NCBI GenBank assembly: GCA_963723625.1
Contig: CAVRRK010000002.1
Location: forward strand, 205,668 to 269,667
Direction of reading: 5' to 3'
From: an uncultured Alphaproteobacteria bacterium
GTDB lineage: Bacteria; Pseudomonadota; Alphaproteobacteria; Rhizobiales; Xanthobacteraceae
Length of the DNA stretch: 64,000 nt
Made by a program: the position numbers and the translations under genes. Positions 23,490 through 36,713 of this stretch are shown piece after piece (within the stretch, counting starts at the first letter, position 1; each line of letters opens with the position of its first letter). Below the pieces are notes generated by a model. It was given only the letters and a program-made list of their open reading frames with translations. It made no database searches and was not told where the DNA came from.

Positions 23490-23834
23490 ATGATCAGTAA
23501 TGGCCTTTATCATATCACCGTCGAGATGCTGGACGGCATCGAGGGCGGTAACCAGGGCGTCATGGTGATGCGGGACGGGACGCTTCGCGGCGGCAACTCG
23601 TTTTTTTACGCTTTCGGGACTTACACGGCCGCTGACGGCAAGTGGAAGGGCGAAGTCACCAACCAGGAGCATTCACCGACGTTTGGCGCGCGGCCCATTT
23701 GGGAGCGAAAAATCGTCACCATCGGATTTACCGGCAGCTATACCAAACAGGATGCCGAAGCCGATGGCATGGCGCTTGTGGGAAAGCAGAGCGTTCGCTT
23801 TAAATCGAAGCTGAGACTGCTCATCCCGGATTGA
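23490..23834 (+). CDS. GrlR-like beta-barrel protein (single domain)
   Basis: NGLYHITV..GNQGVMVMRDGTLRGGNSFFYAFGTY pattern. Confidence 0.7.
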   Translation: MISNGLYHITVEMLDGIEGGNQGVMVMRDGTLRGGNSFFYAFGTYTAADGKWKGEVTNQEHSPTFGARPIWERKIVTIGFTGSYTKQDAEADGMALVGKQSVRFKSKLRLLIPD

Positions 23835-23863
23835 GCTTCTATCGCGGCAACTGGAGCGAGCGT

Positions 23864-24571
23864 GTGCTGCAAGGACTCTACAAGTTCAAGTTCGAGACGG
23901 TGCGCGGCGTCGGCGCCGGCGTGATGTTCGCAACCCGAAGCGGAAAGCTGTACGGCGGTAACTCCGGCTCGTCCTTTATCGGCAGCTATGACGAATCGGG
24001 CGATGAAATCTCCGCCGAACTCATGATGTCGCGTCACAATCATGATCCGAATTACGTGCCGATGTTTCCGGTCGACAACGTGATCATGACATTCAAAGGC
24101 GAGCCGCGGGGAGACGGTGTACATTTCGAGGGCGGCACAGCCAGTCTGCCGGGCATCAAGTTCACAGCCGTGCTGACGCCCATCGACGACGACGACGCTC
24201 CGCCTCCGGGCGCTGTCGGGCCGGACGGCGTACGCAATGGCCTGTACTCGATCCATATTCGGATGCTGGACGGGATCGACGGCGGCAACACCGGCGTCAT
24301 GGTGCTGCACGAAGGCAGGATCCGCGGCGGTGACGCGTATTTCGACTATATCGGCGCCTATGCCGCCGCGAACGGCAAATGGAAAGGAGAAATCGTCAAC
24401 CGCGAGCACACCCCAAGCCTGGGCGAGCGGCCGCTGTTCGGCGGTCACGAGGTAGGCATCGGCTTTTCCGGGACCTATGACGACGAAGGCGCCGAGGCTG
24501 AAGCCACTGCATTGGCCGGCAAGCGAAGCATTCGTTTCAAGGCGGTGCTGAAGAAACTCGTGGAGGCGTGA
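23864..24571 (+). CDS. GrlR-like protein (two tandem domains)
   Basis: GLYKFKF..GKLYGGNSG and NGLYSIHI..GRIRGGDAYFDYIG. Confidence 0.75.
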   Translation: MLQGLYKFKFETVRGVGAGVMFATRSGKLYGGNSGSSFIGSYDESGDEISAELMMSRHNHDPNYVPMFPVDNVIMTFKGEPRGDGVHFEGGTASLPGIKFTAVLTPIDDDDAPPPGAVGPDGVRNGLYSIHIRMLDGIDGGNTGVMVLHEGRIRGGDAYFDYIGAYAAANGKWKGEIVNREHTPSLGERPLFGGHEVGIGFSGTYDDEGAEAEATALAGKRSIRFKAVLKKLVEA

Positions 24572-27639: not shown

Positions 27640-28344
27640 TTGCTCGAGGGGTTCTACAAGGTCCGGTTTCAGGTCAACGATGCGGTCGGCCGCAGCGTGA
27701 TGTACGTGCATGGCGGTGCCATGCTCGGCGGCAATTCGGCCTTCGCCCACTACGGCACGTACGAGGAAATCGACGGTATCGTTACCTCCGAGATAACCAG
27801 CCACCGTCACAACGAAGACCCGAATTACAAATCCCTGCTGGGTGCCGACATCGCCACCATCGATGTGCGCGGCAGCGCGCAGGGCGACGTCTATCACTTC
27901 CGGGGCGGCTCGGCGCAGCTGCCCGGCGCCGTTTTCCAGTCGATGATGACGCCGATCACGGATGAAATTGCCGAACCCGGCGCGGTCGGCGAGGGCGGCA
28001 TCGTCAACGGGCTTTACTCCGTGCATATCCGCATTCTCGACGGCGTCGCCGGCGGGCTGACCGGCGTGATGCTGCTGCATGATGGCCGCATCCTCGGCGG
28101 CGATGCATTCTTCTATTATCTGGGGACCTACACGTCGGCGAACGGACGCTGGAAGGGACAGATCCTCAATCAGGAGCACACGCCGGCCAAGGGCGAGAAT
28201 CCGATCTTCGGTGGCCACGAAGTCGGCATCGGTTTTTCCGGCACCTGCGACGAAGCGGGCGCGGAGCTGGAAGCCACCGCGCTTGCAGGCAAGCGCAGCC
28301 TGCGGTTGACGGCGGCGCTGAAGCTGATGCGACGGGCGAAGTGA
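27640..28344 (+). CDS. GrlR-like protein (two tandem domains), paralog of 23864..24571
   Basis: NGLYSVHIRILDG, GRILGGDAFFYYLG, FGGHEVGIGFSGT, ATALAGKRS shared with the paralog. Confidence 0.75.
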   Translation: MLEGFYKVRFQVNDAVGRSVMYVHGGAMLGGNSAFAHYGTYEEIDGIVTSEITSHRHNEDPNYKSLLGADIATIDVRGSAQGDVYHFRGGSAQLPGAVFQSMMTPITDEIAEPGAVGEGGIVNGLYSVHIRILDGVAGGLTGVMLLHDGRILGGDAFFYYLGTYTSANGRWKGQILNQEHTPAKGENPIFGGHEVGIGFSGTCDEAGAELEATALAGKRSLRLTAALKLMRRAK

Positions 28345-30180: not shown

Positions 30181-30230
30181 TCGTCATTCCGGGGCGCGCC
30201 GCTTGGCGCGAGCCCGGAATCCATAATCCC
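30181..30230 (+). repeat. REP-like palindrome, left arm flanking the GIY-YIG gene
   Basis: tcgtcattccggggcgcg..cgcgagcccggaatccata. Confidence 0.85.
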
Positions 30231-30241
30231 GGACCTCGTTC

Positions 30242-30529
30242 ATGGCTTACTACGTCTACATCCTCGCCAGCAAAAAGCACGGCACACTCTATCTTGGCGT
30301 GACCAGAGATCTCGTGCGGCGCGGTCACGAGCACCGGACCAATTCCGTTGATAGTTTCACGTCGCGCTATGGCGTCAAAATGTTGGTATGGTTTGAAATT
30401 TACGACGATGCGGCAACCGCCATCGCTCGGGAAAAAGAACTGAAGAAGTGGCGGCGCGATTGGAAAATTCGTTTGATCGAAGAGGAAAATCCGGGGTGGG
30501 TAGATTTGTATCCCGGCATCTCAAACTAA
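30242..30529 (+). CDS. Small GIY-YIG nuclease family protein
   Basis: YYVYILAS..GTLYLGVT, FTSRYGV, AIAREKELKKWRRDWK, NPGWVDL. Confidence 0.93.
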   Translation: MAYYVYILASKKHGTLYLGVTRDLVRRGHEHRTNSVDSFTSRYGVKMLVWFEIYDDAATAIAREKELKKWRRDWKIRLIEEENPGWVDLYPGISN

Positions 30530-30532
30530 CAC

Positions 30533-30580
30533 AGGGGTTATGGATTCCGGGCTCGCGCGTCGCGCGCCCCGGAATGACGA
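30533..30580 (-). repeat. REP-like palindrome, right arm (inverted)
   Basis: tatggattccgggctcgcgc..gcgcgccccggaatgacga is the reverse complement of the left arm apart from the loop. Confidence 0.85.
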
Positions 30581-32000: not shown

Positions 32001-32296
32001 TAGCAAATTCTGAGGGACTAGTCCTAGACCCCTGACCTCGGAAATAAATCCGAACGTCCCTCAGAAGCACGCATAGTTCCGCTTAGTTTACCTGTCGTCC
32101 ATCACAGGGTTCACCCCGGCGCGGGTCCTTGAAACGCTATGCAGTATAAGCTCATGCTGGCTCTCCGAGCTTCGCTCTTCGATCCTACCGGCCTGCTCGC
32201 CCATATGGCGCGAACGTCAGTTCGCGTGATCTTGTCGATCATGGTCCAACTTGACGGTCCCAACACGTTTACCGCTCGGCCAATTCCGGCGGCAGC
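32001..32296 (-). ncRNA. DRT2-associated ncRNA (5' hairpin, cDNA template, 3' scaffold); ends approximate
   Basis: Immediately upstream of the RT; 5' hairpin 32271-32293; perfect 11-bp stem 32008-32018/32056-32066 with inner hairpin 32038-32053; split promoter elements on the antisense strand. Confidence 0.82.
32136..32264 (+). other. neo: Predicted 129-nt cDNA repeat unit encoding a Neo-like 43-aa stop-free repeat
   Basis: AAC direct repeat at 32133-35 and 32262-64; head-to-tail joining gives TTGACG-N17-TATAAG; one frame open, the other two contain stops. Confidence 0.78.
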
Positions 32297-32599
32297 TTCT
32301 CAGGTGGAGCGCGATAAATTGAAATTCAAGATCGCGGCAAAAACTTATCAATCTTTGAGATCATGGACAGCTGACAGAATATCTGCAGCATTTGTAATTT
32401 TCCGCTGGACTTGGAAATCGAATCGCCGCGCGAAATTGTCGTTTGCTAGCTGACTTTATCACGCGCAAAATTGTTTTTCAGTCTCTTCAGTCTCTTCAGT
32501 CAATGCCGTAGCCGGGGCCAGGCCTAGCCACGACGCTTATGTATTGCGTTGCTTAGCGCAAATCGCCAGGTACTGATTTATTTCTCGCTCTGACGATTG

Positions 32600-35500
32600 T
32601 TAAGAACACCCCGTCGTTGTTCCGCACGTGTCGCACTTCATGCAGGTGCCGTTGCGCACCAGCGAGAAGTGTCCGCACTCGCCGCACATTTCGCCCTCAT
32701 AGCCCTTGGCCTTGGCTTCGGCGCGGCGTTCGGCCTTTGACGGCGCGGCCTGTTGCGCCGTGAGTTGTCCCGATCCGGCGCGGCTCCATTGCAGCGCTTC
32801 GAGTTTTTCCGTCGGCGACAGATCGTGCTGCGCTTCCTGCTTCAGCGCGACCGCGCCTTCCAGGGTGTCGGAGACGCGGGAGGAGTGGGAAGCCGTCACG
32901 CGTGGCGACCCCTCACCCCGACCCTCTCCCGCAAGGGGAGAGGGAGAAGAGGAGGAGGGTGAAGAACCACCGCCCATAGCAACCACATTGTCGGTGCGGG
33001 AGCGCGTGATGCCCTTGGAGATGAACTTTGAGTTGTGCGCGGGCTCCGGCGCGCGGCCTTCCTCGACGCCCTTGCCGAGCGCGTCGAAATTCGAACTCGG
33101 TGGGATCGACATGCGCGAGATCGAAGCGCGACATGTAGCTGACCGCGAGCTCGCGGAACACATAGTCGAGGATCGAGGTCGCGTACTTGATGGAGTCGTT
33201 GCCCTGCACCGGGCCCGCGGGTTCGAAGCGGGTGAAGGTGAAGGCGTCGACATATTCCTCCAGCGGCACGCCGTATTGCAGGCCGAGCGACACCGCGATC
33301 GCGAAATTGTTGATGAACGATCGCAGTGCGGCGCCTTCCTTGTGCATGTCGATGAAGATCTCGCCGATGCGGCCGTCGTCATATTCGCCGGTGCGCAGAT
33401 AAACCTTGTGCCCGCCGACCACGGCCTTCTGCGTGTAGCCCTTGCGGCGATCCGGCATCTTCTCGCGCTCGCGCATGACAACGATGCGCTCGACGAGACG
33501 CTCGACGACCTTCTCCGAAAGCTGCGCCGTGCGCGCCGCCATCGGCTTGTCGTAGAACGCCGCCCGAATCTGCACGTCATCGTCCTCGTCATCATCGCTG
33601 ATGAGCTGCGAGTTCAGCGGCTGCGACAGCTTTGAGCCATCGCGGTAGAGCGCGTTGGCCTTCAGCGCCAGCTTCCACGACAGAAGATACGCGGACTTGC
33701 AATCCTCCACCGTGGCGTCGTTGGGCATGTTGATGGTCTTCGAGATCGCGCCCGAGATAAATGGCTGCGACGCCGCCATCATGCGGATGTGGCTCTCCAC
33801 CGAGAGATAGCGCTTGCCGATCTTGCCGCAGGGATTGGCGCAGTCGAACACGCTGTAGTGTTCGGCCTTCAGATGCGGCGCGCCTTCCACCGTCATCGCG
33901 CCGCAGATGTGGATGTTGGCGGCTTCGATCTCGCGCTTCGAGAAACCAACCGCGGCGAGCAGGTCGAAGCCGGGGGCTGCGATCGCTTCCGCGTCGAGCT
34001 TCAGCGTCTCGCGCAGATAGTCCTCGCCGAACGTCCATTTGTTGAACGCGAACTTGATGTCGAACGCGGTCGGCAGCGCGGCTTCGACCTTCTTCAGCGC
34101 TTCGTCGGTGAAGCCCTTTGGCCTTCAAGCGTGGAGACGTTGATCGCCGGCGCGTTGGAGAGCGAGCCGTGGCCGACGGCGTAGGCCTCGATCTCCGCGA
34201 TATCGCTCTCGCGATAGCCGAGCGTGCGCAGCGCCTCGGGCACGGCGCGGTTGATGATCTTCCAGTAGCCGCCGCCGGCGAGCTTCTTGAATTTCACCAG
34301 CGCGAAGTCAGGCTCGATGCCGGTGGTGTCGCAATCCATCACGAGGCCAATGGTGCCGGTCGGCGCCACCACGGAAACCTGCGCGTTGCGGTAGCCGTTG
34401 ATTTCGCCGAGCTCCAGCGCCTTGTCCCACGCCGCCTTGGCGTGTTCGACGATGTCGGCCTGCGGCACGCTGGCGTAATCCAGCGGCACCGGATTGACCG
34501 CCAGCGCTTCGTAGCCGCGGGATTCGCCATGCGCGGCGCGGCGATGGTTGCGGATCACGCGCAGCATATGGCCGGCGTTCTTCTTGTAGCCGGGGAAGGG
34601 GCCTAGCTCCCGGGCCATCTCGGCCGAGGTGGCGTAGCAGATGCCGGTCATCACAGCGCTCAGCGCGCCGCACAGCGCGCGGCCTTCCTTGCTGTCGTAG
34701 GAAAGCCCCATGGTCATCAGGAGGCCGCCGATGTTGGCGAAGCCCGAGACCCAGCGTGCGGAACTCGTAGGACAGCTCCGCGATCGCGCGGGATGGAAAC
34801 TGCGCCATCATCACGGAGATTTCGAGCACGATCGTCCACAACCGAACGGTGTGTTCGTAGGCGTCGATGTCGAATGTTTTCGCGCCGCCTTCCGCAGCAC
34901 TTCCATAAAACGTCAGCAGGTTGAGCGATGCCAGATTGCAGGCGGTGTCGTCGAGGAACATGTATTCCGAGCACGGATTGGACGCGCGGATATCGCCCGA
35001 CGATTTGCAGGTGTGCCAGTCGTTCATGGTGGTGTTGAAGTGCAGGCCGGGATCGGCGGAGGCCCAGGCGGCGTGGCCGATTTTCTCCCAGAGGTCGCGC
35101 GCATCGAGCGTCTTGGCGACCTTCTTGTTGGTGCGGTTGATCAGAATTCCATTTGCCGTCGGTTTCCACCGCGCGCAGGAAATCGTCCTTCAGCGAAACC
35201 GAGTTGTTGGAGTTCTGCGCCGGATACCGTGAGGTAGGCCTCCAAATCCCAATCGGTGTCGTAGGTCGGAAAATCGATCTCCTTGTAACCCTGCTTGGCG
35301 TACTGGATGACGCGCTTGATGACGTTGTCGGAAACCAGCGCGCGGCGCGCGAGTTTTATTTCGCGGCGCAAGGCAGGATTCTTCTCGGGGTCGAAGCAGT
35401 CATCGCCGCGAGCCTTCGCAATTCACGCAGGCCTTCAGCACGGCCTTGAGATGCTTCTGGTTGATCTTGGAGCCGGTCACGAGTGCGGCGACCTTCTGCT

Positions 35501-36405
35501 CTTCCTTCACCTTCCAGTCGATATAGGTCTCGATATCAGGATGGTCGGCGTCGACCACGACCATCTTCGCCGCGCGGCGCGTGGTGCCGCCGGACTTGAT
35601 CGCGCCCGGCGGCGCGGTCGCCGATTTTGAGGAAGCTCATCAAGCCCGACGATTTGCCGCCGCCGGAGAGGCGTTCGCCTTCGCCGCGCAGCCGCGAGAA
35701 GTTGGAGCCGGTGCCTGAGCCGTATTTGAACAGCCGGGCTTCACGCACCCAGAGGTCCATGATGCCGCCCTCGTTGACGAGATCGTCATTGATGCCCTGG
35801 ATGAAACAGGCGTGCGGCTGCGGATGCTCGTAGGAAGATTTCGATTTGGTCAGCTTGCCGGTAAAGGGATCGACATAGAAATGGCCCTGGCCGGGGCCGT
35901 CGACGCCGTAGGCCCAGTGCAAGCCCGTGTTGAACCATTGCGGGCTGTTGGGGGCGACCATCTGCTTGGCCAGCATGTAGCGCAGCTCGTCGTGGAAGGC
36001 GCGCGCGTCTTCTTCGGACGCGCCGAAGTAGCCGCCCTTCCAGCCCCAATAGGTCCAGCAGCCGGCGAGGCGGTCGAACACCTGCTTCGACGACAACTCG
36101 CTGACGTAGCGTTCCGCTTCGGGCAGCAGCGCGAGCGCCTCGGTGTCCGGCACCGAGCGCCACAGCCATGACGGCACGGTCTCTTCCTCGACCTTCTTCA
36201 GGCGCGCGGCGACGCCGGCTTTGCGGAAATACTTTTGCGCCAGAACGTCGGAGGCGACCTGCGACCAGAACTCCGGCACCTCGACATTTTCCAGGCGGAA
36301 CACCACGGAGCCATCGGGATTGCGAATTTCCGATGTCGTCAGCCGGAAATCAACGCCCGCGTAGGGTGACTGGCCTGATGTGGTGTAGCGCCGTTCAATT
36401 CGCAT
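32600..36405 (-). CDS. nrdJ: Class II (B12-dependent) ribonucleotide reductase (multiple frameshifts)
   Basis: [48 protein letters not shown]-terminal CGECG..CDTCG..GCS. Confidence 0.95.
32909..32946. repeat. Palindromic repeat inserted in-frame in nrdJ
   Basis: cccctcaccccgaccctctcccgcaaggggagagggag hairpin; reads [13 protein letters not shown] in the NrdJ frame. Confidence 0.7.
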
Positions 36406-36713
36406 GGTCGTGCCCCATTCTGGTAACCGGACCGCTGCTCGCGATGCCCGGTGAATTTCCTTGAGCGAACGCTGCGCCACCTCCGGTGGTCTGCATTCGC
36501 AGTTCGCCGGTAGACCCGGCCTATCCCCTGAACTAACGCCTCAACTTATACGTCGAGCCATTTTGGCTCTGTTTTCGTGCCCCAACAGGGTTCGGAATTG
36601 AGGGCAAACAAGCCCGTCACCCCTGCCTCTTACCGGCAAGTGGAGTGGTCGTTCCAGAACCCTTGAAGGGAGTGTCCGGCGGGACTTCAAACTGACCGAA
36701 CCGAACGATTTAA

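Follow-up and report, generated by a model that had tools for sequence, protein, structure and literature searches.

The closest described system is the DRT2 reverse transcriptase (RT) of Klebsiella pneumoniae with its neo gene (bioRxiv 10.1101/2024.05.08.593200, PMC11100668; PMC12039810; PDB 9C0I and 9C0J). It shares several features with the locus described here, which lies in a 64,000-nt stretch of DNA (the window) from an uncultured alphaproteobacterium. In both, a noncoding RNA (ncRNA) lies upstream of a Drt2 RT, and its architecture comprises a 5′ handle, a template hairpin, a tower, a buttress and a pseudoknot, as laid out in PMC12039810. The repeat unit is a multiple of three nucleotides, and the -10 and -35 elements lie out of order in the genome and are separated by a 17-bp spacer once two units are joined. 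The reading frame runs through the promoter in the same phase, with Leu-Asp across the -35 element and Tyr across the -10 element, and the encoded repeat is hydrophobic and helical. Units of 129 nt are already known among Klebsiella-like orthologs (PMC12039810, available part). The available parts of PMC12596737 and bioRxiv 10.64898/2026.09.22.753630 deal with Klebsiella only. The Tang preprint (PMC11100668), in its available part, describes Neo annotation as hard in divergent DRT2 clades, where other mechanisms are possible.

The reverse transcriptase and its noncoding RNA

The RT gene beside the repeat template belongs to the DRT2 (UG2) family, as the sequence-only reading of this DNA had supposed. 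PADLOC Drt2 matches the protein with E-values of 4e-121 and 1.6e-90, compared with 3e-28 for the next family, and the closest solved structures are those of Klebsiella DRT2 (PDB 9C0I, E 3.5e-56). The NCBIfam model NF041746 scores 358 bits, under its cut-off of 390. The catalytic residues are intact (D132 and YSDD in the 255-259 region), and the gene likely starts at a TTG preceded by the Shine-Dalgarno (SD) sequence AGAGGA. Most of its close named homologs come from alphaproteobacteria (Bradyrhizobium, Neorhizobium, Bosea and Kaistia). The RTs of this clade are separate from the Klebsiella-type RTs. In a quick tree of 76 rows, computed without the closest relative of the window copy (L001), they branch apart from the loci with TGT anchors (SH-aLRT 100), a monophyly that is partly built in because the ingroup was picked by RT similarity. 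The locus belongs to the anti-phage DRT2 systems, yet lies outside the type with ACA anchors.

The predicted ncRNA is a structured RNA of ~293 nt directly upstream of the RT, with handle, template, tower, buttress and pseudoknot (Table 1), in keeping with the ~280-300 nt expected for DRT2. Its ends were placed from the limit of conservation and from the ends of clade members in Tang Table S1. The Rfam family RT-13 (RF03017) matches 32003-32072 at 65.7 bits (gathering threshold 69.1, E 8e-12) and thus shares the 3′ scaffold; the family spans ~70 nt of the ~293-nt RNA and is silent on the template, the anchors and the open reading frame (ORF). In the scaffold stem, 99% of the alignment cells are paired, compared with 33-59% in slid controls. 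The pseudoknot directly follows the left anchor and encloses the tower (~32121-32080) and buttress (32053-38) hairpins. Five base pairs covary family-wide in the helix that closes the template, offset by one column in the alignment. A further duplex joins the ncRNA's 3′ end to the start of the template, and its pair 32138:32002 occurs as three Watson-Crick types (UA in 23, CG in 16 and AU in 14 of 57 loci). This duplex is likely the primer duplex, because in Klebsiella the ncRNA 3′ end serves as the covalent primer of the cDNA. The two systems differ in detail here, since the clade has a covarying RNA 3′-end duplex on template positions 32135-39, whereas in Klebsiella a GATAT DNA primer sits on bases 142-146. 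A strict scan for a promoter of the ncRNA-RT operon returned none; a likely -35 element is listed in Table 1. Upstream of this promoter region lies a short tandem repeat with an 8-nt unit in about three copies (32469-32501).

Several neighbouring features were also observed. A GIY-YIG gene of 95 aa (30242-30529, PF01541) lies directly downstream of the RT between two long inverted repeats, at 30181-30230 and 30534-30580, and resembles a small mobile cassette with palindromic flanks. At 32600-36480, a class II ribonucleotide reductase gene is split into Pfam pieces over several ORFs in different frames, probably by indel errors of a long-read assembly. The genes at 23831-24571 and 27640-28344 form a paralogous pair with an internal duplication, and the latter has a weak GrlR-like Pfam match (E 2e-4, below the cut-off).

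Table 1. Positions of the features of the locus in the window.
Feature	Position	Strand	Remarks
Drt2 reverse transcriptase gene, 408 aa	30766..31992	-	PADLOC, NCBIfam and structure matches
Predicted DRT2 ncRNA, ~293 nt	32001..32293	-	Upstream of RT
5-bp duplex, ncRNA 3′ end (32005-01) with template start (32139-35)	32001..32139	-	Covariation
3′ scaffold stem (32066-56 with 32018-08) and inner hairpins	32003..32072	-	Rfam RT-13 match, covariation
Pseudoknot, 32127-23 with 32031-27	32027..32127	-	100% paired; GC/AU/GU alternates
Left jump anchor AAC (GUU in ncRNA)	32133..32135	+	AAC in 56/57 loci
Repeat unit of 129 nt with 43 open codons in frame 0	32133..32261	+	
In-frame ATG within promoter spacer	32139..32141	+	Most accessible candidate start in joined mRNA
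-10 element TATAAG	32145..32150	+	Family TATAAT/TATAGT
Template-closing helix, 8 bp (32267-60 with 32153-60, from sequence)	32153..32267	-	Covariation
GGCTCT and TCG in place of the family SD (GGAGGT) and start codon 14	32159..32174	+	
In-frame ATG with best anti-SD pairing in window copy	32241..32243	+	-8.4 kcal/mol
-35 element TTGACG	32251..32256	+	
Right jump anchor AAC (GUU in ncRNA)	32262..32264	+	AAC in 56/57 loci
5′ handle hairpin	32272..32293	-	96-100% paired, 20 compensatory cells
Likely -35 element (TTGAAT) of ncRNA-RT operon promoter, inferred	32324..32329	-	CTTG kept in clade

The junction, its promoter and its open frame

The sequence-only reading had proposed that joining the DNA at two AAC trinucleotides 129 nt apart would bring an out-of-order -35 and -10 pair into a promoter and open an endless frame. 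Rereading of the sequence agrees with the AAC pair, both promoter elements and the genomic -35 site (CGGGTC) at the positions given. The join places TTGACG and TATAAG around a 17-bp spacer, and frame 0 is free of stops and gives the 43-aa repeat described, with stops in the other two frames of the plus strand. The joined promoter and its open frame are therefore confirmed. From the window alone the arrangement is only suggestive: among 899 pairs of identical 3-mers in 32071-32500, seven share the highest promoter score, 10 of 12, and three of these are also in frame and open. That it goes beyond chance follows from its conservation across related loci.

Related loci were collected from genomes, plasmids and metagenomes; of the 269 confirmed in metagenomes, the best 80 were used. 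Matches to the RT are scarce (2 of 400 genomes of the class, 3 of 400 of the order and 4 of 400 of the genus), a single-protein scan of genome contigs gave just two loci, and the ncRNA DNA matched 0 of 200 relatives. The alignment comprises 57 non-redundant loci whose upstream DNA is long enough, with RT identities of 41-100%. Duplicates, four near-copies and loci whose upstream DNA is shorter than 400 nt were left out, as were five loci removed by hand before alignment: L002 and L092 (distant RTs), L004 and L005 (which afterwards proved to fit, at 120 and 66 nt) and L032 (template deleted).

AAC stands at both anchor positions in 55 of the 57 loci. In 56, the unit is divisible by three, the spacer is 17 bp and frame 0 is the single open frame; the exception, L024, has a deletion across the right anchor. 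The 56 unit lengths are 129 nt (39 loci), 132 nt (12), 126 nt (2) and 120, 123 and 135 nt (one each). When the join was shifted from -3 to +4 nt, a 3-mer was shared in 55 of 56 loci at shift 0 and in at most 11 elsewhere, so the junction noted from the window is the sole register with microhomology conserved in the clade. The variable core of the 56 units contains no frame-0 stop, whereas 300 shuffles gave 35 on average and never fewer than 22, although kin are not independent in this count. Thymine makes up 46% of codon position 2, versus 16% and 13% at the other positions, a bias towards hydrophobic codons. Despite this kinship the repeats, L001 excepted, are only 14-37% identical to that of the window. 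Outside the alignment, L004 (with an imperfect -10 element), L093 and L102 also fit, with units of 120, 126 and 129 nt.

The repeat has a GRAVY of 0.56, and AlphaFold modelling of a single repeat (with 53-54 relatives) gave helices at 2-15 and 18-40 with a pLDDT of 76.6 and a pTM of 0.36, in line with the hydrophobic, helix-prone repeat described earlier. It is predicted to fold as a helix-turn-helix, resembling the helical model that Tang et al. give for Neo. A Pfam search with the repeat found no match. The earlier remark that standard annotation misses the gene needs qualification, since in two plasmid relatives a single-copy ORF is annotated as a hypothetical protein.

The assignment to a divergent alphaproteobacterial Neo gains from this conservation; the Klebsiella anchor itself is not shared. 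The clade has GUU anchors (AAC in cDNA), whereas Klebsiella has ACA (TGT), a shift of 2 nt, and the spacer is split 8+9 in the clade and 6+11 in Klebsiella (Table S1 row 431). Of two Escherichia coli DRT2 loci, the same homology scan recovered TGT/TGT ends with a 117-nt unit in L114 alone, and in a Photobacterium DRT2 locus it recovered TGT/TAT ends with a 111-nt unit; L099, L100, L108, L112 and L113 gave no clear unit. Six more distant DRT2 loci (L096, L104, L105, L109, L110 and L111), mostly alphaproteobacterial and with RTs ~28-36% identical to the queries, likewise have units of 120-141 nt that are in frame and follow the 8+9 register, with TAC/TAC, AAC/AAC or GAC/AAC ends. The shifted register may, by these sequences, be more widespread than that of Klebsiella.

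Two deviant loci retain an apparently intact RT, L024 with its right anchor deleted and L032 with its template deleted, and are likely inactivated copies. Another, L005 (G390), has at 2563-2628 a 66-nt unit (22 codons) with TAC/AAC anchors, a 17-bp spacer and an open frame 0. Its ATG lies 7 nt past the -10 element, at the predicted +1, and the sequence would fit a possible leaderless mini-Neo of about half the usual length.

The joined junction sequence is absent from the assembly of the source genome. In the 13 sequencing runs listed, none of them an RNA run, no run contained half of the query words. The assembled contigs of four runs, at a depth of ~2 on the exact sequence, held no joints, and such contigs cannot show absence. 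A degenerate junction pattern matched 53 viral contigs, none of which (0/53) is tandem or fits the ncRNA profile (0/53).

Loss of the family start in the window lineage

An ATG or GTG is found at codons 13-15 in 55 of the 57 loci, mostly after a strong SD that pairs at ~-10.5 kcal/mol (calculated with the 16S tail of the genome's own rRNA). A second 16S-tail-like motif, GGATCACCTCCTTT, was seen near C2:8546 of the same assembly (G000), away from the rRNA context on C5. The window copy and L001 (2/57) lack the family SD and start codon, with five substitutions falling precisely on these two elements. The window copy thus differs from Klebsiella DRT2/neo, which has an SD and an ATG past the -10 element. 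The final T of the -10 element is kept in 52 of 57 loci, and a final G is found solely in the window copy and L001. Both losses are points that the sequence-only reading had not raised. With close relatives scarce, the start-less lineage is represented by two sequences.

Comparison of the window and L001 showed 131 of 132 identical positions in the template and ~80% identity in the flanks. Their RTs differ at 132 third positions, versus 40 and 32 at the other two, which indicates purifying selection. L001, the only close relative, apparently shares its genome with L095; a gap of 2 nt in the L001 RT is either a frameshift or a long-read error. The template conservation was considered as a peculiarity of this lineage and set aside, since other pairs at 84-87% RT identity reach 95-98%; the near-identity could also come from recent exchange instead of selection.

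With the SD and ATG lost, translation in this lineage would most likely begin independently of an SD, from a different in-frame ATG. The in-frame starts left are at 32139, 32154, 32205, 32226, 32232 and 32241. Judged from sequence context, the most likely start is ATG 32139, which is the first Met of the peptide given earlier, followed by ATG 32241. The junction context of ATG 32139 folds at -1.0 kcal/mol (family median -4.1), the fifth weakest of 56. As this codon is upstream of the predicted transcription start (~32157), it is usable only from the next transcribed repeat. The pairing at ATG 32241 involves solely the GAUCAC part of the anti-SD, at long spacing. ATG 32154 was discarded as a leaderless start, since it lies too near the -10 element (4 nt). 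In Klebsiella, start-codon mutations except GUG abolish defence, according to the available part of the Tang preprint (PMC11100668).

Mechanism, alternatives and significance

The comparative evidence, rather than sequencing reads, supports the interpretation that the locus works like Klebsiella DRT2/neo, with GUU-to-GUU jumping, tandem cDNA, a junction promoter and a Neo-like repeat, to which we give a probability of about 80%. The ncRNA 3′ end, as its covariation suggests, would pair with template positions 32135-39 and prime synthesis. The RT would then copy the 129-nt template over and over, returning each time from one GUU anchor to its partner, and the resulting tandem cDNA would form the TTGACG-17 bp-TATAAG promoter. 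The joined cDNA would encode a stop-free 43-codon repeat and hence a hydrophobic helix-turn-helix, Neo-like growth-arrest protein. RNP formation, rolling-circle synthesis, the phage-triggered second strand, transcription and toxicity are taken over from the Klebsiella system by analogy. A more specific proposal is tentative and rather unlikely in full: that a mostly alphaproteobacterial DRT2 clade jumps on GUU and primes from the ncRNA 3′-end duplex, and that the junction in the window also builds a ribosome entry site at ATG 32139, embedded in the spacer and reached in the second transcribed repeat. If so, Neo would be made only from cDNAs of at least three units, a second, length-sensing lock on the toxic gene.

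The five substitutions and the lost T of the -10 element are also compatible with a clade that makes Neo and a window lineage that is translation-dead or strongly attenuated, producing repeat DNA and RNA and little or no protein, as an escape from self-toxicity or in early decay. No in-frame start in the window has a good SD (the best of the pairings in Table 1 is at long spacing, compared with the family value), and the 2-nt gap in the L001 RT points the same way. However, the frame, the unit length, the -35 element, the spacer and both anchors are intact, and the template is 99% identical to that of L001 though about a third of the RT third positions differ. Start relocation also seems tolerated, because L005 retains its frame, promoter spacer and ATG at the predicted +1 without the SD module, and SD-independent initiation is common in alphaproteobacteria. 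We regard this reading as improbable, though less so than those that follow.

Far less probable is that the concatemers are joined elsewhere, or that the effector is made in a single pass from the genomic 104-aa ORF (32139-32453) or from the antisense frame after GGAGAG-ATG 32155. Shifts of ±3 nt do leave the frame open, but they share no homology and disrupt the 17-bp spacing. The genomic ORF exists, but a 1-nt gap just beyond the template in L001 alters its tail. In the window lineage the frame in ncRNA sense is open, with an ATG behind an SD-like sequence, but an open antisense frame is unremarkable because it is seen in 34 of 56 units; an antisense Neo was rejected. On the minus strand of the window (32140-32170), the GGAGAG and the ATG at 32155 precede a frame that stays open in the concatemer as well. 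A chance arrangement of short intergenic motifs would be compatible with the three of 899 joins that score equally in the window, but it is already refuted by the comparative data, in which the arrangement is kept in 55-56 of 57 loci down to an RT identity of 41%, with indels that are in-frame only, no stops and covarying helices; its probability is negligible.

The reading of the locus as a GUU-anchored DRT2/neo system can be set beside the published survey. Table S1 of the Tang preprint, in its available form, includes the clade, with 53 places for one ncRNA motif. Its clade rows, among them Bradyrhizobium sp. ORS 278, Maritimibacter alkaliphilus and Magnetospirillum molischianum, have the same RT and ncRNA motifs, and their ncRNAs were annotated by covariance models. 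In 18 of the 18 clade rows examined, which are 16 of the 53 motif places and two others and partly duplicate one protein, the cDNA is 4 nt short and "Neo identified" is 0; the AAC register gives in-frame units where the table has none. Five junction peptides expected from this register do not occur in Table S1 of the preprint, from which the Science version may differ, and the motifs of the window's own lineage are likewise absent from this table. Another cut is given for Bradyrhizobium daqingense (row 216). Literature searches found no paper on a DRT2 anchored by GUU/AAC, and Table S1 was possibly corrected in the Science version.

The DRT2/neo logic itself is already known; what is new is the clade anchored by GUU and the copy without the family start. 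For one large divergent clade, the same Neo logic holds when the anchor is read as GUU, with a shift of 2 nt. This gives exact predicted junctions for cultured strains that are not pathogenic, with 126 nt in Bradyrhizobium sp. ORS 278 (predicted from its row in the available part of Table S1) and 129 nt in Rhizobium and Neorhizobium plasmids. The comparison suggests that the sequence of the jump signal is free provided that both copies match, which bears on the comparison with telomerase and on engineered tandem-repeat writers. Natural experiments on the gating of Neo translation and on the minimum length of a toxic repeat are provided by the start-less lineage and by L005 with its mini-unit of 66 nt.
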